From Psammoneis japonica (lineage: Eukaryota), in assembly GCA_008632985.1 (NCBI GenBank), contig QPGO01000132.1, positions 1-64,000 on the forward strand: DNA of 64,000 nt. Reading direction: 5' to 3'. Shown piece after piece: positions 10,603 through 60,091 of this stretch; within the stretch, counting starts at the first letter, position 1, and every line of letters starts with the position of its first letter. The notes beneath the pieces were generated by a model. That model was not told the DNA's origin, ran no database searches, and saw only the letters and a program-made list of their open reading frames with translations. A program made the position numbers and the translations under genes.

Positions 10603-10810
10603 ATGATGCGTTAACAAAAGATTCATCTTTCTCGTTTTGTTTTTGCAATCTAATCTATTGACACGGTGTTGTCACACTGTGTCTTGTTGTGTATCCATAG
10701 TCTAAAACTTTTCGTGTTGAGACATGTCTGACCATACCAGCTTTGCGAGAAAAAATGTTCAAGTACATGCAATTCAAAACTTGAAATATGATTTGTGGTC
10801 TAACTAATGC

Positions 10811-15675: not shown

Positions 15676-15775
15676 TATCGCTAAGATTACTTCATCAGGT
15701 TTCTAGAATACAGGTATCAGGTGGGAAAAGAGCATGGTACATTTAATTTAAGATTCTCATTTTATTTCCCGAATC

Positions 15776-34010: not shown

Positions 34011-34011
34011 A
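32718..34011 (+). pseudogene. Transposon-associated accessory ORF (basic/acidic, NLS-like PAKKRKK), hypermutated
   Basis: GT-AG intron 33083-33163 joins two frames (AMA-R-IVAEEE). Motifs DEALAL..EN.W and W..KGINWF..LCKEV..DR. No Tyr. Confidence 0.5.
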
Positions 34012-38911: not shown

Positions 38912-40908
38912 AGGCAACTGCACAAGAAAGTGCTCAAGACTGCCTTGCTCAGAAAAAAATGCGCTTGGCCTGGAAACAAATCTGCCAGCTCATTTTTTCC
39001 ATGACTCACAACTCCACATTTGGCATTGTCATGATTTCATCATGCAAGAGTTGTTTTGTGATTGCAAGTGTCCTGTGGGTGCAGCAGCATGAGTTGTGGT
39101 TTCTCATGGTGTTGACATGTCGCACAAATTTTGTTGATTTTTGACCTTTTCACAAAAAGCACTTTGAGCCAGCCTGCTCAAATTGACCATGTGCATCTTG
39201 CAATTTGGGAGGAAGAAAGAGCTCAGACACCAATGCCAAGGTCTGCACACTCACATGCGTGCAGACCTCAACATCAAATTTCATGTGTGAGAAATTTGTC
39301 AGCTTCAGAGCACTGCATTTAGCTCCACAAGCCACACCCGCATGCTGGGAGCTTTCTTTTGAGAGCCTCTGCAGACTGCAGCAGCAACTGGCAGGTTGTC
39401 AAATGGCGTGGGTTGGCACACAACACAATGATGTTGCTGAGATGCAGATGGTCATTTTCTGAGCAAATGGCCTGTGTGTGCTGTCAAGTTCACAGCACAC
39501 ATGAGAAGTTGCTGACAATGAAGGGTTGCTTTCCCCCTGTGTGCACTGTGAACATGCACGCAAATCTCCCTCATGTGTGCTGCAGCATGATGTCCACAAT
39601 GATTGTCATTTGAGCGATTGCACCTCATGTGTGGTGCAAGTCTCACACCACACACAAGGGGGGAGATGTCGCCAAGTTTTGCCGCACATGAAGGCAAATT
39701 TGTCACATGCTCAATGGGGCAATTTCTAGACTCATCATGCCTTGCACCTTGTCATTTTAATCAAGTTAGTCAAACACAGCTTTAAACCACCATGATGCAG
39801 TGCACATGGAGAGGACAGATCTTGTGGCTCAAATGTCGCCAGTCGTGAGCTTCTTGCCAGTGCCGCTGGTGCTTGGTGCATTGCAAGCAGCACGACAGTG
39901 TGCTCTCTTGAGCCGCTGTCTGGCCAAAGCTGCACAAAGTTGGTTTGCTTCTCTCTGTGTGGCTTTTTGACTTTGCTTGTGCTGTCCTCAGTGCCACACA
40001 AGCAAGCCTTTGTTTTCTCATGCTGCTTGTCATTTCTGGCTGCTCTTTTCATCTTTTCTTTTTGTTGTTGCTCTGGCTGCTTGCTGCTCCAACTTGTGCA
40101 GGGCTGCTTTCTGCTGCCACTGCTTTTGACAATCTTGGCATTTTTGTGGAGAAGTGCTGCTGTGCTGGGAGCTCTGTGCTGAAGCTGCAACGATGATTTT
40201 CCAGCTCTGCTGAGAGGCAATGGAGTGCACGCTTGTGCTCTCATTTGACAGAGGCAGTGCGCGGCAGCAGAGAGACATCTTCAGAGCAAGCTCCAATGCT
40301 TCCACATGCTTGAAGATTTTGAAAAAAGCACCGAGGCAGTCCTTTGTGATGCAGCTCTTGACAAAAACTGGGTTGCACCCCAAAGTGGTGCTGAAAACAT
40401 TTTGTGAGGTGCTGCTTGGTCGTGGACAACAGCAACCACATGGGGGGCTTCTTGGCTGGCCAGCTGGGGTGGCAACAAGTTCTTGCTGGGTTGTGCTGCT
40501 GCAGAGCATCTCAACTGCTTGCTTTTGGCACCCAAAACAGCCTCACAATTCTCCCTTGTGGCACCTTGTTCATCCCTTCCGCCTCTGTTTCTTCAAGCTG
40601 CAGCACACAGGGTCGGCTTTTTTTTCGACTCCTGGCAGCTTCTTGCTTCTGCACAAACTCCTTGTGTCTGCACCCGACACTTTGCTTCACAAATTGTTCC
40701 TTGTCCTTGAGCGCCAAAGCTGTCTTCGGTGGTGCTTGTGAAAAATCATCAGCTCACCCCACATAAAATCCGGGTTGCTTCTAGCTGGCTCCACTCGAGT
40801 CGAATCAATCAAAAGTTACCAAATGGCCAGCAATTTGCGTGCGAAGTTCGCGCGATTGTCGCGCAAAGGCTCACGGTGGGGTGAAGGCTTTTGGCTTTTG
40901 CGGCCACC

Positions 40909-41637
40909 ATGACAACGACAGCGATGACTCCAGAGCAACTCAGAGCCGTGACACTGCTAGATGAAGACGAGGAGCCGGTCGCATCGAAAAGTGTGATTGG
41001 AGAAGTGAACGAGGAGCGCCGTCGCGTCTGGTTGTCGCGACTAAATCAAGATGAGCAAGAGCAGTTGAAGCCGGCGGATAAACTCGTTGCCGTGTCCTGT
41101 GTGGGCGGTCGCGGACCCCTTGAACATGCTGTAAGAGTACGAGACGGCGTAGGTACTCCTCTTTTGCTCGAGTGCAAGGTATCCTACGAAGAGTTACCTC
41201 CTTCCATGCTAGTCGAGTACACGTTTGATAATGCTACGTGGCGTCTCTCTTTCGTCTGTCTCGACTATTTGTTGAGTTTTCGCAAGTCCAAATTTCAAGA
41301 TTGGGAAAAGCGAATAACTAACCCTACTTGTAAGGCTGAACTGAAGCGTATGCTGGCGATTGGGGTCGTGACGCGCGTCTACGACCACTACATGTTTCCA
41401 TCCACTGAAGCAGAAATGCAGGACTATCAAGTGACAGATGAAAATGGCAAGACCGTCGTTTTACCAAGGCCTGTGGCGGCCTTGCGCATTTGGTCAACTG
41501 AGAAACAAGCATATGAACCTGTAGATGCGACACTGGACGGTGCTCCAGATGATACCGAGGGGTACTGGAAACAGCTCATTGCGAAACTCAAGACTGAATA
41601 TCCTGACGAAGTAGAGGAGCTCTTGAGTGCGACATAG
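40909..41637 (+). CDS. Hypothetical protein (242 aa), intact gene island
   Basis: Uninterrupted ORF with natural amino-acid composition and normal Tyr and TA content. Good ATG context (gccaccATG). Confidence 0.75.
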   Translation: MTTTAMTPEQLRAVTLLDEDEEPVASKSVIGEVNEERRRVWLSRLNQDEQEQLKPADKLVAVSCVGGRGPLEHAVRVRDGVGTPLLLECKVSYEELPPSMLVEYTFDNATWRLSFVCLDYLLSFRKSKFQDWEKRITNPTCKAELKRMLAIGVVTRVYDHYMFPSTEAEMQDYQVTDENGKTVVLPRPVAALRIWSTEKQAYEPVDATLDGAPDDTEGYWKQLIAKLKTEYPDEVEELLSAT

Positions 41638-42308
41638 TTCAGTGTATCACACTAGAAGTAGCTGGGACGTATTGGAGCAGTCAATGCCTGGCGGGGGTAT
41701 TGACATTGACTGGGATGGCAAGAGAATGAGACACTCTTGAAATTAGTTGAGTAAGACAAGAACTCATGGAATGAACGATACCATTAATTTATTATCATCA
41801 CTTTTGATTACATCGTTCTCCATCATACTTGTGACTCGTGACGCTGTTTATCGATGAGGCCGTTAGACTGGGGTGAGCCTTCGTTAAAACGTCTCTACGC
41901 TTGATCTCCCTGGCATGGAACCAGCCATCTCAGATCTCAGTGCTAATGGCACAAATGGGTGTTCTTCTGGGAATTGCCTTGAGCATGACAAACGCAAGTC
42001 CACAAATCTCTCCACTCCTTGGGGCACGCTGAATTAACAGGATTTGCCAAATCTGCAAAAAGCACTGTGAATCTACCAACTGTTGCCTGCTGCAGAACAT
42101 GGATCCATGCTGCAGAAGAGCCATTGTGGCATCTGTCTTTTGGCCTTGCTTGGGCAACTGATTCATTCTTTGAGAGCTGCTTTTGCTTCCTTTGCTCACT
42201 CTGCCACATCTTCTGATGCTCATTGCTGGAACCCCCCGGAGGTCAAGATCTTCACTTCACATGCAGGTTGAAACAAGCCCGCAGACCAAAGGTGGATGCC
42301 AGCAGTTC

Positions 42309-42334
42309 CTCTCTCTCTCTCTCTCTCTCTCTCT
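42309..42334. repeat. (CT)n microsatellite
   Basis: About 13 CT units. Confidence 0.9.
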
Positions 42335-45300
42335 TGGGGCTCTAGAGATTCTTGCCTCTTGATGCCTCATCAGCAAGGGACAAGCAAGGGCGGGTCTTGA
42401 CAGTCTCAAAGCAACTGGCAGAGCTGGATGGGGAACTGGCAGAGCAAGAGAGGGGGTTCATTGTGTGGGCAGTGTTGGTCAATTGATCAAAGAGGGACTC
42501 CTGGAGAGTTGTGCGGCTCTGGAAAACCATTCAAATACAAAAACGAAGGCGTGAACATTGAGGTTGATGAAGGATTCATCTCATCAGAACACCTGGCATT
42601 TGATGTGGAATCCAGACATCAAGAAAGTGAGTGGGGTCACAGTCAAGGGCAATGAATTTGATCAGACCTTGTTTCTGAAATTTGTTGGGAAATGGAAGAT
42701 GGGGAGGCAAAGTGCTTCGTGAAATGCGCCAATGAGGAGACAGGCCACGCCTTAGTTTGCCAATCACTCAGGGACACCATCAATGTGTTCAGCGGCAAAG
42801 ATGCACTTGAAAAACATTTTGGATTGACCACATTTGGTTTGTGTCCAGACCTTGTCCTTGTGATCTGCACCAGACTGGGGAGCACTCCAATTGACAAAGT
42901 GAAGAATCCAAGCAAAGATGACTGCAAGGTTTTCAGCAGCAAAATTGCAAAACAGGTGCATGACCATCTTGCTCAAGGTCATGGAGAGAATTGAGCATGC
43001 TGCACCATTCATGTTGGTGATGATGCATGAGGAGCTTGCACTTGCAAAACTCAATCAGGAGAATGAAAAGCATTCTCAAGTCACGCAAGAGAGTGCTGCA
43101 CACATTGCCAAAGTGTTCAACCACCGGGAAAATTGTTCAAGAGGAAAAAAAAAGGGGAAACAAAGCCTCCGGCCAGTCCACCCAGAAAATTGCCACAAGA
43201 CAATTTGAGTTCTGAAAATTTGACCATTCTTCTCCTGGTGATTGATGCTGGTGACCAGGTGAACAACAAAGATGAGGATGAAGCCTTTGAAGATGGAGAC
43301 AAGGCAGCACAGGCCTGATGTTGTGTGCTCAAAGATTTTTGGATGGCCACATGTTGTGAAGGCATTGATCCTTGCTGCAGTTTGTGGGCACAGAATTGCT
43401 GAAAAATGTGAAACCAAGTGACAAGGGGACAGCAGGTGCCTTGAGTGGAGCAGCCACCTTGCCGGCAGAAGACCAAGTCATGGAGTCATGGAAAAACAGG
43501 ACATGCCTTTTGCTTGCCAAAACACATTGAGGTGGAAGAAATGCAGCAAAGAGATCCCACACCAACAGTTCCCTGGAGGAAAGTCAAAAAGCTTTTTCCT
43601 GTTTGAGGCCTCCTGTGTGGCAAAGATGATGAAAAAAGTCTTCCCACACATGGCATTTTGTTGTGATGCAAGATCTGAGTGCACAATGATTTGGCACAAT
43701 TGCCTGCTTGCATGACCCCGCATTTTCGTGCTGCAAAGCAGGCTCATGATTTTCCCACCAGCACTTTTGTTGCACATCTCTGTTTTTGCCACTTGTCAGT
43801 GCATGGGGCATTTGTTTCACTTTTGTTTGGATTTTTGAAATGCAGTTCTTGCACTGTGCTTGCTTGAAAAAAAGAACCAGCACTTTTCACAAATGACAAC
43901 AATTTTCTCATTCTCACACTCCCTTGCAATTTCTCAAACATTGTTGCCACTCAAACAGCCAGCAGTGAAGTGCTTGAAACTGCGCCCATGCCAATGATTT
44001 GGTGAAGACAGCTCAGTCACCACAATGGGCTGTGCTTGGATTTTGGCATCCTCGCCCCCCATGGAAGCCCTTCTCCACATGGTTGCAATGGAGTTGTGCC
44101 CCAATGTGTTTGGTTTGGTGGCACAATTTCACAGCAAGTTGGCCAATTTGATGGCCCCCAAATCTTTTGCAAAATCCTGTGGGCCAATCAACTGGATGCC
44201 CTGCCCACACAAAAACTCAGCAGTCATGGGTTCTCACAGCCCAAATCACATCCCACATGGCTGCACTCAAAGCCATGACAAAGGCCAGAAATGACACCAA
44301 AAGAGCACTGAAAAGGAGTCACACAGATCTCTGTTCATTTTGAAAAGCAGGGGGTGTTTTGGTTTGACTGCTGGGCAGCACCACTTCCCAAAAGACTTGC
44401 GCTGGCAGCTCTTGCAGAGCTGTTGGTCAGTGCAATGCTGGCACTGGTGGCAGCTCAGGCCACCCCTCTTGTTCATCAGATTGGTTGGTGCCACCCTTTC
44501 TTTTCTTTCTGCCTTGCCCCCCTGCTGCAGGCTTGGTCACTTGCACCAAAACCAAAAAGTTGAGAATTGGACATTTTCATGACATTCCGCTGTTTGTGCT
44601 GCTTTTCTCATTGTGAGCAAAAGGCTTGCAAGTGAGCCAAGAGCATGTGACTCACCAAGCTCACTCTTGGGAAGACCAAGCATCCCTGCTCAACATTTCT
44701 GTTTGCCCACACATTGTCCATGGCACTTCTTGTTGATCTGCAACACCTTGATGCCCATGCAATGCCCACTCTCTGCCGCCCTCCTGGGAGATTCTTTTTC
44801 ACATTAGAGCTGCTCCTTGCACGTGCAAAGAAAATGTTTTGCATTCCTCTCAGTTGAGGAAAAAGTGGTGGCTGGCAATCATTGTTGATGCTGTGGAGTC
44901 TGCTTGAAAAGCAAAGCTGTGCTTTGAACACACAAAATCTGCAGCTGGCAGCTGCAGCACTGCCACAAAAATGCTGTCTTTTCTTGTCTCAAAATGCTGA
45001 CACCTCCTGCTCATCAAGTCATGCACTGCAAAAAAAAACTGGAAGTGGCCACCAGCAGAGTGCAGAGAAAGCAGCACCATTTTGCTGAAGATGTGCTCTG
45101 CTTCCCCCCCTGCAACGACAAATTTTTGAAAAAAGATGCAGACACTCCCCAGCACACAAGTGAGCTAAAGAGCTGCGTGCACTGTGTGTGTCCACAAGAA
45201 AGTGTGCTGCTGTTGTCAAACTCTTTGATGAGCTGTGCACACAGGTGGGGCACCTTTCATGAAGCTTTGTGGAGATGTCAAATGCTGATTTTCCTGAGAG

Positions 45301-46851
45301 AGTCTGCCTGCAACTTTCAAGAGGTCTTTGTTTAAAATGACACATGGCTTTTGACAGAGTCAAAGCCCACAAGTGTGCACCAAGTGGGTCATGTCACCAA
45401 TCACCTGCTTTTGTGCTAAAGGCTGGCTTGGGTGGCATCACCACCAAAGGCCTGCTGCAATGGCCACCTCCAAATTGGACAAAATCTAGCTCCTTGCTTG
45501 TTTTCAAAAAAATCTTCTCGACCGCTTCAACTTGAGACTGAACTGCAATCCACAGAAACAGCCAATCAGCCTTTGCAGCTGGCATCCTCAACATCATCCG
45601 GCCGCCAGAATGACGAACAGAAATCAAGCAGGACAACAAAGGCAATCTTCACCAACACACTGTCAGATTTGAGATTAACACTCTGCAGCAGAGGTCAAAG
45701 GAACTTGATCACAAATGTTTGTGAGTCAAACTTGTGCTCAGTGGAAACAGTGTGCTGAAAGCACCAAACTGTTACGCTGCAATCGATGTCCTTGGTGCAC
45801 AGTGCTGCATCGATGTTTGCAAAGTTAGAGACACTTGGGATCCGACAAACTAAAAAGCCAGAGAGCCAATCAACCCCCTCTGCACCTGTCCCCCAGTGCT
45901 CTGGAGAGAATCCTCTGTGGGGCTTGGACGCGTGCCGGCAAGGAAATCTGATGAAGGAGCTCCTCAAAATGACATCCCGTTGCACTGTTCAGCTCTCTCT
46001 ACTTTGAGTCTTTGCAGGCATTGCAGCAATTCTCTGGGCTGACCTGGTTCCACAAAAGATGCGCGAAACACTGTGAGTTGACAACCTGGAAAGCAGATCC
46101 AAAGTTTGGCTTGCCGTTTGCATTGCCAGGGGTTCGGAACATGGTTCGAACACAATCAGGGCTTTTTGGATCCCCGTGTCCTTTTGTGTCCACAACACTC
46201 AGCATCGCCTGTTCCTTGGACATGGCATCAACCGTGGCCTTCTTGTCCAACTTCCAGAGTTCTGGACTCTTGGCACACTCGAATGCCTCCCGCATCCGAC
46301 CACCAGTGTGTGATGGAAAATGTCCTCAAAAACTTCATCGGGAGAACAGCTGGAAGCAGATTTGTCATTGGCATCAGCATCGGCTTCATCAAGACATTCC
46401 ATTCCATCATCAGATTTTGTTGTTGCTGAAGCCGCTGCTGCTTTGCTGTCACCAGCTTGTTTTTTGCGGACTGGAATGTCCAAAGTGCACTCCAGCACTG
46501 AGCGCAGGTCCGGCTTTTCCCAGCCACTTAGAATGACCAGAGCAGATGATCTCATAGATTCTCCCTGAGGTGCATCATGTCCACTGCTTGTTGCAAGGCA
46601 ATGGTGTGGTTGACTCACATCTTCGTCACATTCGTGAGGACCATCAAGGAAAAAGAGGACTTCCTTGGCCAAAACTTTGATCTCTGCCTCATCAGGTGTG
46701 ACCCTCATGTGCTTTTGCAAAGCATCCTCCAACACATCTCCCACCATCCAGCATTTTTTCAACTTTCAATTGAAGTGAATCGTAGCCCACTCATTCTCTG
46801 TGTTGCCACTGACCTTCTTTCACATGAAAAACACACTCATGGGTTCTTGAA

Positions 46852-47127
46852 TGACAGAAATTGAAGGCAAATGGCAAGAATTCAAACAATGGCTCCTTGC
46901 TGCTGTCTAAACAGCAGATGAGTCTCCGCTCAGAGACCGTTGCAGGAGCCGAAAGACGTGCAAGTCGGTGCAATCGGGCTGCTGTCATCATTCTTGTGAG
47001 CCTTGTGGCTCGAAAGCAAACTACATCGCGTGCGAACGCGCAGAACTGAAGCACACAAAACTGTGTGCGGCAAACTAAACAGTGCGCGACATGTTGCGCG
47101 CACCCAAATCCTGTTCAAATCCTGTCA
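46852..47127 (-). repeat. 3' LTR
   Basis: Ungapped match to 53660-53935. Adjacent to a PPT-like tggggag on the minus strand. Confidence 0.96.
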
Positions 47128-47142
47128 CTCCCCAGTTTGCTT

Positions 47143-50100
47143 GAGGAGCCACAGAAACAGATTCAACTTCGGATGGAATGAAGTTCCAGAACATGAGGGG
47201 GCGGAGAAGGTCCCAGACTTGGGAGCAACCCCAATGCTTGCTGAGAATGTCAGCAGGGTTGTGGGAGCCTTCGATGAAGTGGAGCTCAAGGCAACCAGAG
47301 GCAATTGCCTCACGCACATGGTGGAATGACAGTGCAGTGTGTCGCTTGTGTAACTTGGAGTGCGGGATGGTGGCACTGTCTACAACCGACTTGTTGTCAC
47401 CGAACATGTAACTGATGTCACGGATCTGGACGCCAAGGCAGCGCAGGGTGATGCGCAGGTCGACAATCTGCTCGACACAAGTCCTTGCGGCAACAAATTC
47501 AGACCCGTGAGTCGCAGTCTCCACGGTGGCTTGCTTCTTAGAGAACCAATCAGCCGGGAATTTGTTGAGGAAGTGGAGCATTCCCATGACAGAGCGTCTG
47601 GTGAGCATGCAATGGTGCAAGTTTGCATCGACGTAGTGGGTGGCAGTGACGAACTTGCCAAGGGGCGGTGGAGCGTCCTTCGGGATCATCTCTTCTGCTT
47701 TGCCGCACACGGAATGCATCCATTCATGGGCCGGAGCAGGGAGATCCGAGTGGTCGGGCTCTTCCGTGCGAACGTGGAGAGCGCCGTGTTGCATCTTGGA
47801 GAGGTGCCCACAGACGCGTTTGGCACGATCCAAGTGGCCTTGACGGGGCGCAGCTTGGAAGCTAGAGAGTGACATGACGGCCGTGGTGATGTCAATTCGA
47901 CCAAGGGACACTGCCCATTGGAGTGAACCAACAAGAGACTGGAACTTGTGAATGCCATCGGGCCCCAGCAATTCGGAAGTGTCCAGTTCGGAGTGGTCAC
48001 CCTTCTCCAGAGGTGACAGGGCGTTGGTGGCAGGTTTCTCCCCAAACAGTCGGGTGCAGCTGTCGACCATGCGCTCGATGTACTTGCGCGGAGACAGGCA
48101 CAAGGTGCCGTCGGGATCCCGGGAAAAGTCGCAGCCCAGATGGAACTCAATCGGTCCCGCACCCTTGAGCTTGAACTTGTGCTTTTCCATGAGAGTGTCG
48201 ACAAAAGATTGAGGGTCCTTCATGGCAATGGCGAGGTCATCCACACAAACGGCAATGCATTCGCAGTGGTTGCCGTTCCTGTGCATCCAAATGTCGGGTT
48301 CGGCATGGCAGGGGAAGAAACCTTCAGCTCGCAGGCAGTCGGCGAAGCGCTCATGCCAGCGGAGGCCAGAGCTGCGCAGTCCATGCAGGGCCTTGTGGAT
48401 GACAAGGATGTGGCCTTCGAGTTTGCCAAATTCAGGTCCGGCTGCAATGTAGAGCTTCTCCTTGGTGGTGGCTTCAAGGTGGGCATTGCCAATGTCGGTG
48501 GCCCATGTCTCCAACTCATTGAGTTCAGCCAGGAAAATCATCAGCCGAAGGCCACGGAGGGAGACTGCTCCGGAGCAGACACTGTCGATGGGTGCGTCCG
48601 TGAGGTGCCCATCGGCTGCGAGACGTGCCTTGTGGCGACCGTCGTGTTTCACGTCGCACACCAGGTGCACTCGGATCTTCTTGTGTCCCGCAGGAGGAGT
48701 GGAAGACTCGGAGGGCCCGCAGTCATGGAAGACTTCGCATTCCTCGAGTTGGTCCATCTCGAGATTAGTTGCGTCTCCCCATTTGCGGTTGCCGTTGCGT
48801 TCGTCTGGTGACATGGCGTGTTTGCAGTTCCGGGGAACTTCGCATCCGTGCTTGCAGCGAGGTGCAGTGCGGAAGGAGCGAAGCTTGGCTTGGTTGGCCA
48901 TGCAGAATGGCTTCTTCTGGCGCCTCGCGATGGTGCGGAACCACTTCCAGCCATCAGTGTCGAGAAGTCCGTTCTCTCGTGCATGGATGGCGCAGGTGAC
49001 AGGGTCGTCCTTGGCGATGATGGCAAGAGGCTCGGACGTGATCTCCCCACTTTCCCATTCAAGCACAATGTTGTAGCTTGAGCCTTTCCAGGTTGGGTCA
49101 TGGGGCTTCAGAGGTCCTTCGTGTGACACAATGCATCGAAATTTCCAAACAGCAGTGTCTTTGTCTTCTTGCTCAATGTGATTCATGATGTCGTTGTAGG
49201 CCAGGACTTCCTCACATTCGTCGTTGTTGACAGAGCAGACGAACTTAGTGAGCTCGGGATTGCCATTCACTTTCCATTCGTGGTCTTCAACGGCCTTGAC
49301 GATGCAAGCTCTGTGGCGTTGTCCATCCTCTTGTGGCTGCATGAGGAAGGTGCATCCGATGGTGTCTTGCGGATCAAAAACTGGCATCTTGGGTGTCCTG
49401 ATCTCCCCATCAGGTGAATCGACGGGGTTGTCATCATGGCGAGATTTGATGATGGGTTCAGGTGGCTCCCCATCAGGAGGATCAAGACGCAGGTTTCGAG
49501 CGGCAGGATCAGTGGCAGCGGATTGTACGTTGGACCGGCAGAGGATCTTCTGAGTCTCGTCAGAGAGGATCTTGAAGGTCATCTGGTGGCCAACGTGCTC
49601 AGCAATGCCAACAAAGCGTCCACGCAACTCACGGGATTCGGACGGCCAATCGGAGTCATCGAGGTGGAAGCACACAGGTTCCCACCAGTGAAAGCGAAGC
49701 AATGGGCTGATGTCCGGGGTGGAGCCAGTGAGAGTCTCGAGGGGCGTGTGCCAGTGGAGACTTGGGGACGCTGCATGGTTGAGCACGAAGCACACGTGCA
49801 TGAGCGCCAGCAGCCATGTGTGGGCAGGCGAACCGAAACGATCCATGACAGTGTTTGCCACGCGCTTCACGGTCTGGTGTTGACGTTCGGCAAAGTTTTG
49901 GTGTTGCTGGTGAGGCTCACTTTGCCAGCTGGAGACAAAGAGGGCTCGTAGGATCCCGAGCACCTTGTTGCTGATCTCAACTTGAGCACGGTCGCCAATG
50001 AGTTTGGATGGAGCACCACGCTCACGGATCTGATCCTCGAGTGTGTTGACAAACTCTTTGTCCGTTTTGGTGCCACAGACGTCAGTGACGGTAGACTCGG

Positions 50101-52744
50101 TGCCAACAAACAGTTGGGCGCTGGTGCAACCAGAGTCGACGGCCGGGGTGTCGGCACAAACGGTGTCAGTGGCGACAGGCTCGTTGTGGCGGTGCACATT
50201 AAGGGCGGGGTTGGGCGATTTGTGGGCCTTCCCAAGGTGTGCACCGGCGGGCATGCGGGCGCACTGCGTGGTGCAGTCGAAAGTACGACAAACCGCATCG
50301 GCAGGTTGGAAGCCAAAGTGAGGCCAAAGAGACTCGAAGGGGGGGTCCTTGGGCTGCACAGTGCGCTCCGGGGGCGGAACGTCGTCGTCCTTGGGGTCAA
50401 TCGCGTGTAGATGACACTCGTGGAACACGTCGTCATTCGGAATGAGATGGTCATCGAGGGCGGACGCGTGATCGGCAGACAAGGAGGCGGACATGATGGT
50501 CTTGTTGACGACGACACGATGACGGCAGTTGCCGCATTCGTCAAACAGGTTGGCAGTGGGATCGTCCTGCAGGTCAGAGATCGCATCGCACCACTGGTCG
50601 TCGTCAGTGACAGAGTGATCAAGGACGGAAGGATCCCATGTGTCATCACCGGTGAGGATGACATGGGGCAGGGTGTCCCATTCGGCGTCAGTGCAAGGTC
50701 GCATGGCAACATGAGGCAGGCCGCCCTTGATGTCAATTGGGATGACACAGCCATCAGGGGTGGCAATGCGTTGCAAGCCGTTGGGCACCTTGACAGAGCG
50801 ATCGTTGACATCCTGTTTGTGCCATTCGAGCTGGCCGCAGGAATGGATGGTCTCGCCCTTTCCCGTGCATGCGTGCTGATGGAGGATGGCGATGACGGGG
50901 CCATGCTGTGTCTCAATGACGGCACCAGTGGTGACAACAGGGATGTCCACCAATTGATGGTCGTCAATGCCCTGAACGTCGACTTGGCGAGAGGTGCATG
51001 CAACAACGCGAACGTCGTCGCCAGCAATGCCGCTGTTGGCCCCACGATCGACCAGAGCACCAGTGCGTGTGGAGCGATGAGCAGAGGCAGAGCAAATGAC
51101 ATTGTGGTCATCAACGCGGTGGCAAGTGCGGCCGTTAAGTTCTGTGTCATCGGCAGGAGCGGGCGAGGTAGAGGGAGCGGCGGATGGCCCTGTTCGACTG
51201 GCGTTGGGGGCTTGGTTAGGAGACAACAGGCGTTGCAGATCACCGGGTGGCAGTGGCTTGCGTTTGGTGAGGTGCGCCAGGATGGGATCATCTGAAGTGG
51301 CACCCACATTTGGAGTGGGGTCACCAGAGTCAGCAGGAGTCGTGTTGGACAAGTTGACATCACCGTCACTCCCAAGGTGTTGGTCGTGAAGGTTGGCCGT
51401 AACGGACTCATGGCAGTTGCTGGCTCGCGGGTTGCGGGGAGGCAGATGAGAATGCTCAAGGATGATCGCCTTGGAGGAATGGGGCAACAAATCCCAAATC
51501 CGTTGGTGATCGGGAGGGAGACGTTTCCATTGGTCACCGGTGAGGCTGGGACCGCGGGTGCAGGCAGCATTGGCCTGAAGGACGTCAATGTCGCTGTCGA
51601 TGTCACAGAACACATCATCGGACGGTTCCTCGGAGTGGACGTCGTGTGCGTGTGTGGCACATCAGGGAGCTCGAGGTGTCGTCTTGGGTTGAAATGCACT
51701 GTTGCAATGAGCCGCTGCAGAGAGGATCAAGCCACAATGTTGATCGCATGTGAGGCTCTTGCCACTCTGCGTGCGATGCTGATCAGCTTGGTTCTTGACA
51801 GCACGGAGTTCCTCGACAGGATGCATGGCATTCTCGAGCATGACGCGCTTCTGTTCTTCAGAGAAGTGGTCACTGGCCGGGATGAGTGCCTCGCACTTGC
51901 GCAACTGATCTTGCCAATGAAGAATGAACCCGTGGGTCGGACCTTTCCAAGTGCCATCACCAAGACGTGCGGTGGCAAGGTGCGTGAGCAAGGTGGAGGA
52001 CTCGACAGATGCGCGGGTGGAGGCAAGCGCATGCTCGGACAAGGCGCGGCAGACGGTCTGGGCGTCAGAAGACCCCACATTTTTGTGAATGAGAGCCTTG
52101 CCCTTGTCGGTGAGAAGGATGCGTTCGAAGACGGCGAACATGTGCTTTTGCTGTTCAGCAAAGAGCAGTTTGTCTTCGGGGCTGGTCGGTTTGTACGACA
52201 AGTCTAGGGTGCACTTGACGTCTTGGGCACGGGCTTGTGCCACAAGTGAGGTGTGCCAAGTGTGCCACTGCTTGTCGGATTTGAGGGCCGTGAAAGCGGT
52301 GGGGTCACGCTTGATGCCTTGCTTGAAGTCTCGCACTGGGTCGCGTGCCTTGGTCGGGTTGGTGACATGCAGAGGTGCGAGGGGCGAGCTGCCGACGGAC
52401 ACAGAAGACATGCAGTCGGGGCTGAGGCGGCAGGCAAGGAACTCCTCATGCATGAACAATGAGGAGTCATTGGCAACATCGAGACCTTTGTGTGCTTTGA
52501 CAATGTACAGACTAACTAGAGCTGCTAACATGTTCTTACAACCGCGGGGCAAAGGGATCACATTGGTGCCGTTGTCGCACTCAAGCGAGTCGATTTGGGA
52601 CGGCATGAACGTGAACAGTTCTTGGCACGAGTCCGTGCCGTCATGGGTCAAAGCCAAACAAAGAGGGCTTCCAGCACCTTGGGCAAGCACGGTTCCAACA
52701 ACGTGCTCGAAACCATCGGTTTGTTGCTGACAAGTGAGAACCAT
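47143..52744 (-). pseudogene. Copia gag-pol polyprotein (protease, integrase, RT, RNase H)
   Basis: ALVDRGAN (PR); VATDTV, QQHQNFAER (IN); HKARL, DIGNA, KAL.GLRSSG, .VDDL (RT); VDAN, GSEF, GDNKSV, NPADILSK (RH). The gag and pol ORFs share one frame, separated by a single TGA at 51662-51664. Confidence 0.93.
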
Positions 52745-53659
52745 GACAGACAAAAGCGGTGTCAGGACAAGCGATTCTTGTTGGGATGCGAAGGTAGACT
52801 TGAAACTTGGGTGAGAAAGGACTTGACTTGAAACAAACTTGACTTGAAATCTTGAACTGCCTTAAAATCAGAAGTCGCCGGGCTGTGCCATCCCATTCGT
52901 TGTCAAGTGCCAAACTTCCCATCCGGTCCGTAGAGTTGTGCCGGCACGTCCGAACCCGCAGCTGGCGGTGCTTTGGGTTGCTTACGAGCGGAGCAGCGGG
53001 TTGCAAACCCCTGCAGGTGAGCTGACCAGAGGTGGACAAGACCCCCGAACCATTCTCATTTTATGTCGGTTGGATTTCCCGATCAGGCTGGCCAGTTGAT
53101 GCAGGCATCAGGCGCTGTGGACGAACGAACAAACGCGGGAAAACACCCTCGCCCCAACGCAGGCTGCAATCACGGCTGCTTGCTCTCACAGTCGTCCTCG
53201 TGGACCTGGTGGAACTGCAGAGCACCAGCAGTCCAGGGCAGATCAGGTGCAATGGACTCGGCGTGCTTGTAGAGTGGCAGCAAAGCCGCAGTCCAAAGAG
53301 TGGGTTCAAGTCCTTGGCCGTGGAGACATGCACAGATCCTTGAACATGTGGGGTTCTTGACCGTTGACCGTTGAATGGGCACATCAAGGGATGAGGATCA
53401 AGGGTGGACTTGGACATGACCGTTGAATGCATGTCTTCAGCGACAAAAAGCAGCACAATCAATCCAGACATGCAGCGGCAAGGAGACTTGACGGTGACGT
53501 TAACTTCCTGCCGATGCCCTGGTGTTGAATGCGCGCAGACTTGCCGATGTGCGTAGAACACATGCGGAGGTCCACGCAGAATTGAAGTGGCGTCGTCGGC
53601 AAATCAACGACGACGACGGCGGTTGCTCAATGGGTTGACAATGAGCAAGACTGTTGATC

Positions 53660-53935
53660 TGACAGAAATTGAAGGCAAATGGCAAGAATTCAAACAATGA
53701 CTCCTTGCTGCTGTCTAAATGGCAGATGAGTCTCCGCTCAGAGACCGTCACAGGAGCCGAAAGACGTGTGAGTCGGCACAATCGGGCTGCTGTTGTCATT
53801 CTTGTGAGCCTTGTGGCTCGAAAGCAAACTGCATCGCGCGCGAACGCGCGGAACCAAAGCACACAAAACTGTGCGCGGCAAACTGAACAGCGCGCGACAT
53901 GTCGCACGCACCCAAATCCTGTTCAAATCCTGTCA
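53660..53935 (-). repeat. 5' LTR
   Basis: Ungapped match to 46852-47127. Confidence 0.96.
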
Positions 53936-55319
53936 TTGAATGTCTTTCATCTTGCAAGCGAAGCAGACAGGCTTGGGATTTTTGTCGCACAGAGTGCAGC
54001 AGAGTGCCACAAGGAACAGCAATGTTTTTTTCCCTGCACCAGGTGAGCCAACTGCAATCTGTCTTTGCTTTCGATGACTCTTGGTCAGTTCCTTGAGTGC
54101 ACCACACATTTCCCTCCGAATGTGAATGGCCCCATTGGGGAAAAAGTGTTCCTTGATTCCCTCCGGATGAGGGGCAAGGGGTGCAAGAAATGCTCCGATG
54201 TTGATGCACCCTCCCTCCAGTGGGCCTGTGGTGGCACACAAGCTGGCGTCAGCACAGTCAAGCGCCGCTTTTCCATGCTGGATTGATGACAACGACGTCA
54301 TTGCCAACGCTGGTCATGGCACCTTGGTCGTCCTCTGGGGGGCATCTTCGGAAGTGAGACTGTCAAAGAAAGTTGCATGGAATTTGTGCCAAAACAGTCT
54401 GTCAATCAGTGCAGTTGGGCATTTGGGACCTCTGGACAGATCCTGCATGTTTTCTTGTGCATGCAAATTGCACTGGAAAACCCCCCAAACGCACTGGCGA
54501 TCAGACCGCCTTCGATGATCTCACTTCCAAAGACGCCCCCCACCAACTCCCTCTAGCTGGCAGAGAGCAGGGCCCCAGAGCAGTGGAGAGCAGAGTTTGA
54601 GACAGTGTGGGGGAAGTCTCCAGTCAGCGCGCTGCTGGCTGAAGAAAATTGTGCAGTAGAATTTGCACTGAAAGTTAGGAGTTTTGGTGAACGCAGGACA
54701 GACTCGACGTCTTTTGCGCAGGCGGGCGGGCAGGGCCTAAAAATTGCACTGCAATTACAAAACCCCCCAAACGCACTGATGGTCAGACTTTCTTCAGCCA
54801 GCAGCTGGCTGGAGGAGTCGTCCCCCGCACTCGGTATGTTTGATTCATTCAGGACGAGTGCTCTGTATGATGCTCGACAATGAGCAAAGTCTGGAGTCAG
54901 GCAGCGTGTCGACTGGCAAGAGGTTGTGTCGGAAGTCTCCTTTGTTTCCTGTCATGAGAATGAGATCAAAAATTTTCCAAAAGATTGTTCTCTCAACGTC
55001 TTCGATTGCGAACCCGAGATTCCATCATGTGCACCCTGCGATAATTGGCCACCACAGGAAGACAATGCGGACAGAAGAAAGAAAAGAAAGGAATAGTCAG
55101 GCCACAGCTTGTCATGGGATGACGCGAGCGTTTTACAAAGTCTCACTGATAAAATAAGAGGAAAGCGAAGCAAAGATCGCGGTGGAGAAGCAAACATCGC
55201 AGACACGAATTGTGGGTTCGCAAAATTTGCACGAGTCAACAATCGCATAAAATCTACATCAGCAATGACACGACATACGATCCACTGAACATCCATTGTC
55301 TACAGCTGTCCCCTTGACC

Positions 55320-56627
55320 ATGTTGATCCGAACTACCGCCATCAGTCTCATGTTGCTCTTCAAGTGGCAAGTCCTTGCGATTCAGCCACCTGTACCGCCC
55401 ATGCCGCCCGAGCCTCCTATCCCACTTGCATGTGACGCATGCTTGGGAGGTGGAGTCCCAGCGTCGACCCCATTTTGCAATGAACTTGTTGCGCGGGCAG
55501 CGGAACTTGATTTTTCATTAGATGATGACGTGGAGGAGTGCCGCATTATCCAAGTGAATGCTGCTGAAGAGTGCGGCCCCGACTGCGTTTTGCCACCAAT
55601 ACCTTCCGGGAACTGCAGTGTGTGCGCTGACGGATTGCCTGTTGCAAATCCAGGCAGAAAAATTCCAATTGTGGAGGGTATTATAGACACGACGTGCTCA
55701 CATTATGATGAATATTTTTGGAGAGGTTTTGCCCCATGGTTATGCGCCACTACCAAGCAGCGCCTGGGAGCGTGGTGTGGGTGTGAAGGAGTGGAGAATG
55801 AGTGCCCCCTTTGTCCCGAGGCTGATCTTGACAAAGCGTTCCCGTGTTTCCCTCCATGTTTCCCATTCAAGCTCAGTCTTTCTTCCCGTGTGACTTGCCG
55901 GGATGCAGCGTTTTACCTGTCCACGTTGAAACGTTGGGAATGCAATGATGTCTATGGTGAATTCAGTCCTTTATCTTTTTGCGGCTGTAACGCGCCGCGT
56001 CCTAATCTTTGCAAAGTCTGCCCGGATGGTCAAGTACTCGCAAATCCTGAAAAGGTGATTGATATTCATGGCATTACCTGCCGAAGGGCTCAAGAGATTG
56101 CGTCCTACTTGTACCTGGGTAATTATTGCAACCTCGTTAAGTTTGCAGCAGAATCTTGTTCATGTGTGAGCGGTGCTTCGACTACCTCCCCGGTGCTAAC
56201 GTTTGAGCCAACAACTCCTGAGCCGACCACCGAGCCCCCCAAGACTCCTGAACCGAGTACGGAATCGACTCCTACGCCAACCACTGAGCTCCCCAAGACT
56301 CCCGAGCCGACCACCGAGCCCCCCAAGACGCCAGAGCCAACGACGTTGAAGCCTTCACAGACGCCAGGTCCGACCACCGAGCCCCCCAAGACGCCAGAGC
56401 CAACCACTTTGAAGCCTTCACAGACGCCAGGTCCGACCACGCAGCTTGCACAGACACCAGAGCCAACGACTGAGTTTCCACAGCAGACCACTGGGCCTGT
56501 GCAGACGCAGGAACCGACTGCAGACTCATCTCCACCGGCAACTGAATTGGGAGACGACTCGAGCGCAACGTTGATTCGCTGTGTCTTGCCATACTTCTTG
56601 GAAATCGGTGCCATGTTTGCGATGTAA
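55320..56627 (+). CDS. Secreted/cell-surface Cys-rich protein with Pro/Thr mucin-like stalk and possible GPI signal
   Basis: Signal peptide, repeated CxxC...TC...CGC modules, TPEPTTEPPK repeats, and DDSSA followed by a hydrophobic C-terminus. Confidence 0.8.
   Translation: MLIRTTAISLMLLFKWQVLAIQPPVPPMPPEPPIPLACDACLGGGVPASTPFCNELVARAAELDFSLDDDVEECRIIQVNAAEECGPDCVLPPIPSGNCSVCADGLPVANPGRKIPIVEGIIDTTCSHYDEYFWRGFAPWLCATTKQRLGAWCGCEGVENECPLCPEADLDKAFPCFPPCFPFKLSLSSRVTCRDAAFYLSTLKRWECNDVYGEFSPLSFCGCNAPRPNLCKVCPDGQVLANPEKVIDIHGITCRRAQEIASYLYLGNYCNLVKFAAESCSCVSGASTTSPVLTFEPTTPEPTTEPPKTPEPSTESTPTPTTELPKTPEPTTEPPKTPEPTTLKPSQTPGPTTEPPKTPEPTTLKPSQTPGPTTQLAQTPEPTTEFPQQTTGPVQTQEPTADSSPPATELGDDSSATLIRCVLPYFLEIGAMFAM
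56210..56480 (+). repeat. Coding tandem repeats (TPEPTTEPPK / TPEPTTLKPSQ)
   Basis: ccgaccaccgagccccccaagac occurs three times, with related units. Confidence 0.9.
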
Positions 56628-56989
56628 TATTTCGTTGAGAGAATTACCCCGAGAAAACCGTTTTATTCCATGCATCAGTACATACCTTGAATACATAATA
56701 CGCAATACGGTTGCAACCGTTGACATGAATGTAAAATTGAATGCTCGTTTCGACCGGCCTGCTTTAGAGCGGGCTACAGAAGCGTGACACGTATTTGCCG
56801 AGAAAGTAACTCGGCCCCGATAGAACAAAAGAGAAAGTAGAGACAGAAAAATAGACTTATGTCAATTACTATTAAGGTTTAAACAACTCTCTAGAGAGTT
56901 GTACGAGCCGAACTCTCTGCATACGATAGTTCTGGCTGACTCCCGCATTAAACGCTAAATTATTCCCGCTTGTCGTTCCGTCCTTTTTA

Positions 56990-57433
56990 TTATTCAAAGA
57001 ATTCAAATTCGACCAGAACAATCTTGGAATTTCCATCATAGAAGGTCAGATAATTTCCATCAACCGTGATCTTTGTCATCTCGGGCAAATGGGAGGTCAG
57101 GTAGTTCTCCATTGGACGTTGCTCCGGCGGAGGCAGCATTTTGGTACTCGCCACGGGTCCCACCTCAATGTCACCCTGGTCATTCAACACTGTAAACTCC
57201 GTCGACATCCTATTGGCAACCCTCGTCTTGATGGTATACTTGTTCTCTCCGTCTGCTTTGTCGATAAAGAACGAGACACCACCGTTCGTTTTCGTCACGG
57301 GAATCAAATCCGCGCGTTCTTGGTTGTTTTCAAAGGCCGTCTGGATTTTCCAAACTCCTTCATACTGAGCCATGGATGATGCTATGCAGATCGCTATCAA
57401 GAGAAAAAGGGACCGTAGGGGAGACGCTGTCAT
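56990..57433 (-). CDS. Secreted META-domain (HslJ-like) protein
   Basis: Signal peptide. Motifs EGVWKI, ANRM, VGPVASTKMLPP, ENYL...L. Confidence 0.7.
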   Translation of the reverse strand: MTASPLRSLFLLIAICIASSMAQYEGVWKIQTAFENNQERADLIPVTKTNGGVSFFIDKADGENKYTIKTRVANRMSTEFTVLNDQGDIEVGPVASTKMLPPPEQRPMENYLTSHLPEMTKITVDGNYLTFYDGNSKIVLVEFEFFE

Positions 57434-57719
57434 GGTTGTAGTTTTCGTTGTATGCTTCGTTGTTCGTTTCGTACTTCTTTTTTCTTGCTGTTGTCGGGCT
57501 CTTTTTATTTCTGGAGCGAGGCGCGAACGAGGTGGAGCGAGGAGCGAGGCGGAGGGGTCTTCCAGTAAGTTCGGCTCTCCGTACCCCGTCGTACATTTTC
57601 TACAGAGAACGTCATCACTTAGGAAAGACAATACTGTATGTTGTACATACTGCACTCTACAGTACATACACAGAACAATATGAGAGTCATCTTTCTCCGC
57701 TCCTTATTGCGTGCGTGCT

Positions 57720-58390
57720 TGGTTGACTTTTTGTCGATTGGGTTGGTCATTTCTGACTGGTCACAGTCATTCAATCGAAAAAGTCGTGCAGGTGGGTTCA
57801 GTGCCACAAGCGGTGTGGCGGACGCTGTTGTGCTGCAATCGATGGACTGTTGAGACTGACAAGTCATGATGTCCCAGAGGTTGTTGTGCATTGAAGAGCC
57901 AAAGCTCAATGACTGCTGAGCAGCAAGCTGCTTGCGACAAAGCAAGAGCAGCATGCCTGACCCGCTTTTTTGTGCTGCGATGCTCTTCTCCCCACACGCT
58001 GCCTCTGACCAGGTGTCTCTGGAGAAATGTGCTAGTTGTGTGCCAAGAGATCTGTCAGACCCATGTTTTTCACCACAAAAACCATGAGACTCATGGCCAA
58101 AAAGAGCTGCCTCGCCATTGGGGCTCTGCTCTTGCTTTTGTGTGCTTGTTTTGGCACAGCACCAATTTTTTTTTTGGCCACTGGAAGTTGCTCTTTTTGG
58201 CTGGCTGCCCCTGCTGTGCTGCAGCGAGAAAACCTGGAGATGATGCTGGGTGTGTGTTGTGCATTCGGCGTTGTTCCTCGGTTGGACCAACAGCGTTCAC
58301 TTGGCTGAGCATCGGGTGTTCAGTGCTCCACTCTCCCACACACAATCGAAGAGCCAAACGGTTCTGTGTTCGAGCTCCAAGCTCTCAAAA
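57720..58390. other. Short TpA-depleted insert between divergent genes
   Basis: About 670 bp with about one TA, flanked by TA-rich sequence (57630-57710 and >58490). Confidence 0.75.
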
Positions 58391-58511
58391 CTAATCTCGC
58401 TCCGAGCAACACAACACACAACAAACGAAAAACTGCCGCCAGCGATGACAACAACCATCAGAAGAAAGTGAAGAGTTGATTGTTGTTTGATATAAGCAAG
58501 AGTTCATCACA

Positions 58512-60091
58512 ATGATTGTCGCTACTAGCACAAGTTTTAACGAAACACGCATTGCTTCCTTGCTGGGAACGTGGACTTCCACCGTGCGCGTCAAGGCATT
58601 CCTGGGAAATTACCAGCTCTTGACGTACTTTGTCCTTCACCTCATGCCTAATCCCACGCGAGAATATCGCTGTTCCCGATCGGATTGCAATGAAATCGAC
58701 AATGAGGTTTGCGTCAAGCAATATACTACGCAAAATACCTTTCAAAGCAAGTGCGTCAACTTGACGGATGAAGTAGTGGAGTGGTCTGATGGTATGTGGT
58801 TTGAGCGCCGTTTCTGCTTTCTGCGTGTACCCGTAGATGGTGATTTTTTGAGATAATTTGATTCTCACACTTTTTTGACTCGTTTTCATAGTCTCCGCCT
58901 TTTTGTATTTTGGTTCAAAGGTTGATGCTGGGATCCCATTTAATATTCATCAGGAGCACAACACTGGGGGCTGGGTAGGGCCTTTTAGTTTGATTTTTGC
59001 CCAAGATCCATCCATCAACGGAGAAAATCAGCAGCAAGACAACCAAACCATTACGTTGGATCGGTATTTTGTTCGCTACGCCAACACACCCACGACACCT
59101 TACTTGCACATGAACCCCAACAACACGCTAGTGTCTCAAGAAGAGGATTTCAATAGGTACATGGGGCCTTTAGCGGTGAATGAAACCATTGTCAAGCAGC
59201 CGCATGTTACAGCCGAGACGGATCCCTACGAGCAATACCTCAAGACCTGCGAACATGGCAATGTCAAGCCCATTTTACCATTGTTTGACTTTACCTTTGT
59301 CCAAGACAAGGAGACTGCACAGGAACGCGTCAATGTCAAATTCAATTACAAACTCTTGTCCATTCCGCAAAAGGGGGATATCATGTACAAGGTGTTTCCT
59401 TGGATGCAGTCACGGGTGAATCGAAGGCAAAAGGACTTTCATATTTCTGGGCCTTATTGCTATGGTGAGTTATCAACAGTTTCGAATCTAGGGGAGATTG
59501 TCTACAACTAGTGTTTATCGGTTGTGCTCATGCGTGTTTTGTATTTCAAGGAGACGATGCAAAGCGAGGCTACACGTTTGATCTAACATACGACTCGACA
59601 CAAGAGTCCCAGGTCATGACTCTCATTCATGGGTGTGCAAAAGGTATTTGCAAACGATACACTACAACAAGCTTTGTTTGTTTCTTGAATGTGCTCATGT
59701 GTCGTTTGTCTTCTCTGTTCTGTCGTTAGGTTATCCCTGCCTTCCGTCAGCGGCAAAATTGGGAACAGAGGATGCCGACAGCATCATTCACAATGCTACA
59801 AAGATTGACACTGGAGATGTGGATGCCGGTGCCATTTCGCTGCTCATGTTTGCCTTGTACTTTTTGTTGCTTGCACTGCTTGTTGCACTAACGTGCAATT
59901 GTCGCTTGAGGCGAAGATTGCGTCACCAACGTGCACTCACTCCATTACGCCGCCGGGCGGCGGCGGCGGACCCTGGTCCTTTTGGTGATTTGGGAGAAGA
60001 TAATGATTTGACAGAGCCTCTTGTGGAAAACAAACAGGACGATACAAAGGAGGAAAGTGTCAGCGAGAGTGCAAGGGTTGAATTTGTATAG
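58512..60091 (+). CDS. Hypothetical multi-exon single-pass membrane protein
   Basis: Consecutive natural-composition ORFs with probable introns near 59465-59550 and 59643-59729. C-terminal TM (AISLLMFALYFLLLALLVAL) followed by a basic stop-transfer segment. 5' structure uncertain. Confidence 0.55.

Follow-up and report, generated by a model that had tools for sequence, protein, structure and literature searches.

Repeat-induced point mutation (RIP) of ascomycete fungi creates TA dinucleotides from CA and TG by C>T changes; in other fungi, RIP-like mutation is targeted at CpG. The A:T phase of somatic hypermutation has its hotspot at WA, with A>G changes. In this phase, polymerase eta acts during the patch repair of deaminated cytosines, and deamination is thereby tied to A:T mutations in the vicinity (PMC2213188). 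Genomes also record clustered transition hypermutation of long terminal repeat (LTR) elements as fossil traces of APOBEC or ADAR editing (PMC4866542). In dinoflagellates, 5-hydroxymethyluracil (5hmU), made by TET/JBP enzymes, occurs preferentially at TA and TC, is concentrated on repeat elements and has a silencing effect on transposons (PMC11572971). The DNMT4 enzymes of diatoms, of unknown function, are relatives of fungal RID (PMC9998398). Here, we analyse 64,000 nucleotides of the diatom Psammoneis japonica (GenBank assembly GCA_008632985.1, contig QPGO01000132.1, positions 1 to 64,000 of the forward strand; hereafter, the window), which contain a Ty1/copia LTR retrotransposon at positions 46852–53935. 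It is likely that this element and the repeat-rich islands of the window have been subject to an in situ hypermutation of A·T to G·C that is specific for TpA and directed at the islands, accompanied by CpG decay.

According to the proposed scheme, two dinucleotide-specific transition processes would act in place on chromosomal DNA after insertion. The fast one would convert TpA to TpG or CpA, that is, A·T>G·C on either strand, with one hit per site, and the slow one would be the CpG to TpG/CpA decay expected from cytosine methylation. The two LTRs would be hit independently, and wherever a shared ancestral TA was hit on one strand in the first LTR and on the other strand in the second, a CA/TG swap would surface between them. 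CG would not be produced, because a single hit destroys the TA: after conversion of TA to TG, the complementary strand carries CA, which offers no substrate. To account for the lack of CG, it suffices that the enzyme requires the dinucleotide on a single strand.

The element represents one Ty1/copia insertion in the minus-strand orientation and displays the following features, including its open reading frames (ORFs):

46847–46851, no strand: left target-site duplication TTGAA, read directly from the sequence and identical to 53936–53940
46852–47127, minus strand: 3′ LTR in the element sense, 276 bp with TG...CA ends, containing 3 TA and 17 CG
47128–47139, minus strand: putative purine-rich, polypurine-tract-like sequence adjoining the 3′ LTR (junction in the element sense, ...aaactggggag|tgacagg)
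47078–51661, minus strand: pol-type ORF of 1528 aa with a Ty1/copia reverse transcriptase (Pfam RVT_2, E = 2.3e-22)
51662–51664, minus strand: lone in-frame TGA splitting the gag-pol frame
51665–52861, minus strand: upstream (gag-side) ORF of 399 aa, in frame with pol
53660–53935, minus strand: 5′ LTR in the element sense, 276 bp, containing 1 TA and 21 CG
53936–53940, no strand: right target-site duplication TTGAA, identical to the left copy

The LTRs (46852–47127 and 53660–53935; 276 nt each, 92% identical, gapless) were the only long direct repeat that the repeat search found in the region. Both are bounded by TG...CA, and the identical 5-bp duplication outside each of them assigns the pair to a single insertion. 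Along its entire length, the pol ORF can be aligned with gag-pol homologues, the longest of about 1930 aa, and it is 44–69% identical to metagenome relatives among the 120 matches listed; the long relatives (about 1850–1900 aa) are presumably single gag-pol ORFs. A Pfam scan of the gag-side ORF returned no match, integrase and protease domains were not found in the pol ORF by Pfam at E ≤ 0.001, and no tRNA-complementary primer-binding site was recognisable by eye beside the 5′ LTR. When the element was compared with the 64-kb window by BLAST in search of further copies, it matched only itself. The plus-strand GC skew of positions 48001–54000 is strongly positive (up to 0.19), meaning that the coding strand of the element is C-rich, and the imbalance between TG and CA (683 versus 599) explains only a small share of this skew.

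The two LTRs differ at 21 positions, all of them transitions, with no transversions and no indels. These positions group into 15 sites, namely, six CA/TG doublets (46912–13, 46941–42, 46961–62, 46969–70, 46986–87 and 47047–48), two TA versus TG differences (47023 and 47077), four CG versus TG and two CG versus CA differences (together at 47031, 47042, 47066, 47083, 47095 and 47098) and a single G/A difference outside these classes (46892). A preliminary description of the locus had counted 15 variable sites in two 276-bp LTRs, free of indels and transversions, and divided them into six CA/TG, two TA versus TG, six CG versus TG or CA and one other; the position-wise listing reproduces both the count and the classes exactly. 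The differences are highly specific with respect to dinucleotide context, affecting 20 of the 146 positions in pyrimidine–purine (YpR) steps but only 1 of the remaining 130. Placing 21 transitions at random in 200,000 simulations produced six or more adjacent doublets with P = 3e-4, and six or more CA/TG swaps were never obtained (maximum four). That the changes arose after insertion, in the chromosome, on both strands and at YpR steps, as had also been claimed, is borne out by the shared TTGAA, by this YpR bias, by a model of independent hits and by the presence of the same signature in DNA unrelated to retroelements, both described below.

Pairing of the YpR steps between the two LTRs gave the following counts:

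CA/CA 22, TG/TG 20, CG/CG 16, CA/TG 6
CG/TG 4, CA/CG 2, TA/TG 2, TA/TA 1, TA/CG 0, TA/CA 0

In a two-class model, with ancestral TA and ancestral CG sites hit independently in both LTR copies, the TA class would comprise approximately 13.6 ancestral sites with a probability of 0.15 per copy of remaining unconverted (1.92 hits per site), and the CG class approximately 22.6 ancestral sites, each converted in a given copy with a probability of 0.16, equivalent to 0.17 hits per site. The estimated TA rate in the LTRs is therefore about 11 times the CpG rate (1.92 versus 0.17 hits per site), and the CG class would be expected to yield only 0.29 of the six swaps. The background, one difference in 130 non-YpR sites, corresponds to 0.004 per site per copy, so that the TA rate would exceed it by a factor of the order of 500, a very uncertain figure given that the background is a single event. 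Most of the swap sites were therefore probably TA, not CG, in the ancestral element.

The direction of change is apparent from the pol ORF, which we aligned with 34 gag-pol homologues (35 sequences altogether; homologues 53–62% identical, drawn from the 120 listed matches). Tyrosine makes up 0.39% of the element's pol product, compared to 3.87% in the homologues. At the 33 conserved Tyr columns (at least 80% Tyr in the 34 relatives), Cys stands in the element 17 times, His nine times, Phe twice, Tyr five times and Arg never, and the YVDD box of the reverse transcriptase reads CVDD. Conserved pol columns contain 58 substitutions attributable to a single transition, of which 37 are TA>TG/CA, 16 are CG>TG/CA and five are of other kinds; beyond these, 13 require a transversion and 16 are complex. 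By sequence context, the 58 single-transition changes divide as follows:

A>G with 5′ T: 25 of 58
T>C with 3′ A: 12 of 58
C>T with 3′ G: 6 of 58
G>A with 5′ C: 10 of 58
Other: 5 of 58

Thus, two processes converge on TG/CA, one from TA and one from CG, and the TA process ends after a single hit. The flanking bases were uninformative as to whether adenine or thymine is targeted (13 versus 8), the data being dominated by Tyr codons.

Additional evidence comes from other copies of the family. Four public sequencing runs, all from one sample and one study, contain the stretch as contigs, and in one of these (run X1) 14,282 contigs could be placed on the element at a likeness of at least 85%. The summed contig depth on the element is 48,693–202,236 per bin, compared to 56–69 on the unique flanks (roughly 700–2900 times), which suggests, without proving it, that the genome holds hundreds to thousands of related copies. 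The right flank at 54106–55098 is itself a repeat, with a summed contig depth of 1,195–4,590 against the same 56–69 on unique DNA. Variable places among the family contigs comprise 445 transitions and 55 transversions; the states reported here and below are from 40 of 519 variable places, none of the 40 within an LTR. At 13 positions where this copy has TG or CA, the family majority is CG (57–100% of depth), representing ordinary CpG decay of this copy from ancestral CG. Four variant places, two doublets and two single positions, fall on conserved Tyr codons and are listed below together with a doublet that spans a codon boundary (percentages are shares of depth):

47439/40: Cys in this copy; Tyr in 34/34 homologues; 36% His and about 1% Tyr in other copies
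47751/2: His in this copy; Tyr in 25/34 homologues; 51% Cys in other copies
48576: Cys in this copy; Tyr in 34/34 homologues; 27% still TAC (Tyr) in other copies
47409: Tyr in this copy; Tyr in 28/34 homologues; 23% Cys in other copies
47887/8: converted TA spanning a codon boundary in this copy; Ile followed by Thr/Ala/Met in homologues; about 65% the opposite doublet, 10% TA and about 26% as in this copy

The preliminary description had suggested consulting an unedited family member for the ancestral dinucleotides. At these polymorphic Tyr-codon and doublet sites inside the element, the family contigs contain TG, CA and residual TA, with no detectable CG; therefore, different copies have independently converted the same ancestral TA in one direction or the other. 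For the most part, the refuting conditions named in the preliminary description thus turned out to favour its reading.

The loss of TA extends well beyond the element. We divided the window into 128 bins of 500 bp and calculated observed/expected (o/e) dinucleotide ratios. In 67 bins (52% of the window), TA o/e falls below 0.2, with pooled values of 0.07 for TA, 0.45 for CG, 1.64 for TG and 1.66 for CA, whereas 49 bins are normal (TA 0.58, CG 0.99). The edges of the depleted islands are sharper than about 200 bp. Decay of CpG co-localises with the TA process; across the islands, TA is uniformly low and CG o/e ranges from 0.03 to about 0.9, a combination that fits a fast TA process accompanied by a slow CG process. 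Confinement to sharply bounded repeat islands, with the neighbouring genes spared, would point to a targeted genome-defence or heterochromatin-coupled hypermutation. The gene-like bins (e.g. 10001–20000 and 56001–64000) have a TA o/e of about 0.58, compared to 0.73–0.93 in whole metagenome loci with related elements; the lowered TA might be due to a slight action of this process throughout the genome, or to codon usage alone. The islands and the informative sequences outside the retroelement are:

42000–55000 (approximate ends), no strand: TA-depleted island holding the element and older flanking repeat remains; TA o/e 0.00–0.32 in 500-bp bins
27500–41000 (approximate ends), no strand: TA- and CG-depleted island, from bin o/e, with a Plavaka-like relic and the repeat pair 38463–38574/38800–38911
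21300–22780, no strand: small TA/CG-depleted island between two gene-like regions, with 5 TA in ~1.45 kb and TA dense on both sides
7500–9500 (approximate ends), no strand: depleted island, from bin o/e
1640–2564, plus strand: CRAL_TRIO gene paralogue A, in a depleted island (about 1–5000); Pfam CRAL_TRIO, E = 2.6e-12
6088–6999, plus strand: CRAL_TRIO gene paralogue B, located in normal DNA and serving as the unedited reference; Pfam CRAL_TRIO, E = 3.8e-16
29512–32271, minus strand: relic of a Plavaka-like DNA transposase, a Tyr-depleted open frame of 920 aa; homologues 31–62% identical, some with PF18759 (Plavaka)

The two CRAL_TRIO paralogues are 68% identical; paralogue B contains 28 TA and 62 CG in 912 bp, compared to 7 TA and 35 CG in A. 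The 27 aligned TAs of B read TG 13 times, CA 10 times and something else four times in A, but never TA or CG, whereas its 62 CGs read CG 17 times, TG 13 times and CA six times. The reverse change is rare, a TG of B standing opposite a TA of A only once, and at the protein level Tyr residues of B are His or Cys in A. Thus, only one of the duplicates has been mutated and the other spared, with the caveat that selection could have kept B. At the 3′ end of paralogue A lies a 185-bp tandem duplication (window positions 2431–2800, 88% identical). Its two units (2431/2616) show 22 differences, nine of them transversions, along with two CA/TG doublets, which marks this pair as older, or more complex, than the remaining ones. 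By comparison, all 12 differences within the pair 38463–38574/38800–38911 are transitions and include five CA/TG doublets. In the Plavaka-like relic, Tyr has dropped to 0.33% from 2.6% in the homologues (Y>C three times, Y>H once, Y kept once). The TA-erasing signature is, accordingly, not specific to retroelements and does not depend on reverse transcription. One suggestion of the preliminary description is not supported by these comparisons: if some CG sites were doubly edited TA, Arg should appear in place of conserved Tyr and CG in place of paralogue TA, but the counts are 0/33 and 0/27, respectively, and the LTRs contain no TA/CG pair.

The few remaining TAs provide information on sequence preference. 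Among the 41 TAs surviving in the element, a 5′ A or 3′ T occurs in 1 of 82 pooled flanks, compared to 336 of 1326 in gene-like DNA, and over all islands the corresponding values are 26 of 292 flanks versus 514 of 1962 in normal DNA. The survivors avoid a 5′ A or 3′ T, and we therefore conclude that ATA and TAT are converted first. Same-strand runs of TG or CA outcomes were not found (18 runs versus 17.2 expected and 11 versus 12.3 expected), that is, each site is hit independently and the process is not processive. Conversion of TA also affects stop codons: TAA and TAG occur at 1.6 and 2.0 per kb per strand in the element (46852–53935), compared to 7.9 and 7.0 in the gene-like segment 10001–20000, whereas TGA is unchanged (20.0 versus 19.4). 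With TAA and TAG almost gone, each of the six frames contains long open stretches, and dead elements of this kind are likely to be called as genes by gene finders.

Most relatives elsewhere lack the signature. Related copia loci in metagenomes invariably (24/24) have a TA o/e of 0.66–0.81 in pol, and Tyr content is at least 2.9% in all 120 listed homologues. No relative was close enough for reading the ancestral LTR bases, the best protein matches being 69% and 58–64% identical and the metagenome loci 38–60%. A search of 1.84 billion representative proteins revealed, among the best 150 matches, two without Tyr, one with 0.66% and one with 1.9%. These Tyr-poor public proteins, P0369, P0379, P0394 and P0304, are copia pol fragments, 48–58% identical to the element, with the following residues at conserved Tyr columns:

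P0369: Cys 9, His 3, Phe 1
P0379: His 7, Cys 2, Arg 2 (2/11 Arg)
P0304: Cys 5, His 3, Phe 1, Tyr 4
P0394: His 2, Phe 2, Cys 1, Tyr 1

The signature is thus present in other copia lineages, of this organism or of others, and Tyr-less copia fragments have already entered public protein collections.

Could the LTR pattern result from ordinary CpG decay only, with swap sites descending from CG deaminated on the top strand in one LTR and on the bottom strand in the other? CpG-type changes are certainly real, accounting for 16 of the 58 single-transition changes in pol, for the 13 positions with a CG family majority and for the six LTR sites with CG opposite TG or CA. Nevertheless, a CG-only model predicts 2.0 swaps, 12 CG/CG pairs and 14 pairs of CG with another dinucleotide, compared to the observed 6, 16 and 6, and its fit to the same four classes is poorer by about 6 log-likelihood units. 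Nor can CpG decay explain the loss of Tyr codons to Cys/His, the TA>TG/CA conversion at 23 of 27 sites in CRAL_TRIO paralogue A, the TA o/e of 0.07–0.12 or the TA that survives at polymorphic family sites, which makes this explanation very improbable. The same low probability is attached to editing before integration, whereby ADAR-like hyperediting of RNA or deamination of cDNA would be fixed by retrotransposition. ADAR-type enzymes prefer a 5′ U, in line with this possibility, and some TA>TG/CA states seem to be inherited within subfamilies, for instance at 51004/5, where 100% of contigs share one state. However, the two LTRs of one insertion differ at edited sites, on both strands; the signature recurs in the relic of a DNA transposase, in a paralogue of a host gene and in island DNA that is non-coding; and same-strand runs are absent. 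The pattern that marks ADAR hyperediting fixed by retrotransposition, namely, same-strand A>G clusters, identical in both LTRs and limited to retro-copied sequence, was not observed.

A technical origin must also be weighed. If silenced DNA carried, at TA and CG, a modified base that is miscalled in a strand-dependent manner, the consensus would likewise read TG or CA, never CG, and would coincide with methylated islands; furthermore, the sequencing platform of the runs is unrecorded. Yet a 4569-bp run contig with a depth of 68.9 reproduces the TA-less flank 45500–46877 with one difference, and contigs of depth 56 reproduce 53910–54374 and 54504–55400 with none. With strand-split calls, contigs would be broken or reach only half the depth, whereas the depth is uniform at 56–69. 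At the six swap sites, TG and CA alternate every 8–60 bp in the identical context of two LTRs, which is impossible from a local strand majority, and the TG, CA and TA alleles of the family reside on separate contigs. A sequencing or assembly artefact is thus unlikely, indeed very unlikely in our estimate, bearing in mind that the runs come from one sample and are possibly the assembly's own data. Accordingly, the check for strand-dependent calls proposed in the preliminary description came out favourably as far as contigs of uniform depth, matching the flanks with 0–1 differences, are concerned, and less decisively in that it relied on contigs only, from runs possibly shared with the assembly. 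At 45979, in the left flank, the assembly has G and the sole covering run contig has A at full depth (68.9 of 68.9), owing either to an error in the assembly or to a difference between strains. Finally, the LTR differences could in principle stem from exchange with other copies of the family, by recombination or gene conversion, rather than from point mutation, all the more so as the apparently very abundant family would provide many potential donors. But the same 5-bp duplication surrounds both LTRs, the differences are scattered single sites and doublets confined to YpR steps, with no tracts, and conversion leaves the origin of the variants unexplained; we regard this possibility as extremely unlikely.

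TpA-specific hypermutation in place, combined with CpG decay, accounts best for these observations, but several points weigh against it. The base data come from a single 64-kb window, and the four runs, possibly being the assembly's own data, offer limited independence. At 51004/5, all 19 family contigs (100%) carry the doublet opposite to that of this copy, which needs subfamily structure as an explanation. The TA ancestry of the six LTR swap sites rests on the two-class model together with loose-end fragments from single contigs, and the model itself predicts 0.29 TA/TA pairs where one is observed, suggesting that ancestral TA sites may not all be equally convertible. The codon-level signal in the Plavaka-like relic is weak, given the distance of its relatives, with nine TA-type, 10 CG-type and 13 other single-transition changes. 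Arg at two of the 11 Tyr columns of P0379 may indicate double hits elsewhere, and the enzymology we can only infer.

As for this enzymology, the first-ranked candidate would be a DNA adenine deaminase with a 5′-T requirement, recruited to silenced repeats; TadA/ADAT-type deaminases prefer 5′-U/T. The second would be mispairing with G of a thymine modified at TpA, and the third, error-prone repair synthesis coupled to the repair of deaminated 5-methylcytosine. That TC is not depleted (o/e 1.05 in both islands and normal DNA) counts against modified thymine, and the undepleted AA (1.28 in islands versus 1.15), together with the lack of transversions at LTR sites, against repair synthesis. The CpG component could be driven by the diatom DNMT4 enzymes. 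We put forward, tentatively and with the balance of our judgement somewhat against it, a dedicated genome-defence mutator that would recognise silenced or repeated DNA and deaminate adenine (or recode A:T) at 5′-TA-3′ in chromosomal DNA, a mirror image of RIP and a natural DNA A>G editor. Were this the case, TA, Tyr codons, TAA/TAG stops and TATA-like signals would be erased from every transposon soon after insertion. If real, the phenomenon would point to a hitherto undescribed activity that acts on chromosomal DNA and is strictly specific for TpA; to our knowledge, no natural enzyme of this specificity has been described, and such A·T>G·C activity is of the kind that base-editing technology had to engineer. 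Two further candidates were rejected. Eukaryotic N6-methyladenine (6mA) sits at ApT. As the underlying mark it was discarded on the grounds that AT is not markedly depleted (o/e 0.83 in islands versus 0.94 in normal DNA); eukaryotic 6mA has been tied to transcriptionally permissive chromatin (PMC12695648). Biased gene conversion is not TA-specific and runs contrary to the loss of CG.

The process has direct consequences for the dating of transposons. The raw divergence between the LTRs is 7.6%, compared to 0.8% outside YpR steps, confirming the earlier warning that LTR-based ages would be inflated. For such genomes, both raw LTR ages and Kimura landscapes would be inflated about ten-fold, and non-YpR sites are preferable for dating. 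Furthermore, loss of TA saturates early and loss of CG is graded, which together may provide a two-speed clock for the age of islands.

Two gene-like features complete the description of the window:

23260–24420, minus strand: arginase gene, 65–69% identical to named diatom proteins among its best matches
10811–13951, minus strand: open frame of 1046 aa in normal DNA, with internal Ser/Ala-rich repeats (self-matches at 11607–12157)

Our literature search did not reveal any account of transposons mutated from TA to TG/CA, be it in diatoms or in other organisms, including in passages of PMC9998398, PMC2806351, bioRxiv 10.1101/2025.10.24.684338, PMC11572971 and PMC11804724, with subscription-only papers and the organism's genome paper lying outside the search. 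The comparison with described systems is nevertheless instructive. APOBEC and ADAR editing acts on cDNA or RNA before integration and is strand-biased, unlike the diatom changes, which follow insertion, affect both strands and extend to non-retroelement DNA. Hypermutation by polymerase eta differs in that AA is not depleted here, the LTR sites lack transversions and such near-saturation is atypical of that process. Thymine hypermodification in dinoflagellates offers a possible analogue for the marking of TpA in transposon DNA, but TC is undepleted in the diatom islands and the accessible part of PMC11572971 does not describe a mutational consequence; our literature search returned no report of 5hmU in diatoms. 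An initial idea, that the window comes from a dinoflagellate with 5hmU, was abandoned in view of the diatom-like arginase gene. Methylation-driven CpG decay is evident in the same islands as CG>TG/CA change, CG depletion and TG/CA excess, but cannot cause the loss of TA, which in the LTRs proceeds about 11 times faster per site. With fungal RIP, finally, the diatom pattern shares a saturating, transition-only and dinucleotide-specific mutation that is limited to repeats and transposons, with the death of these elements and blurred LTR dating as its consequences. The direction, however, is opposite: TA is destroyed by A>G/T>C, so that instead of the raised TA typical of RIP, TA o/e falls to 0.07–0.12. 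In addition, only CRAL_TRIO paralogue A was mutated, whereas RIP strikes both duplicates, and there are no same-strand runs. By analogy, the process appears RIP-like in its logic but departs from RIP in direction and in duplicate symmetry, with CpG decay as a second component, and, if real, it would represent a second, chemically different way in which eukaryotes mutate transposons to death, in the A·T>G·C direction.

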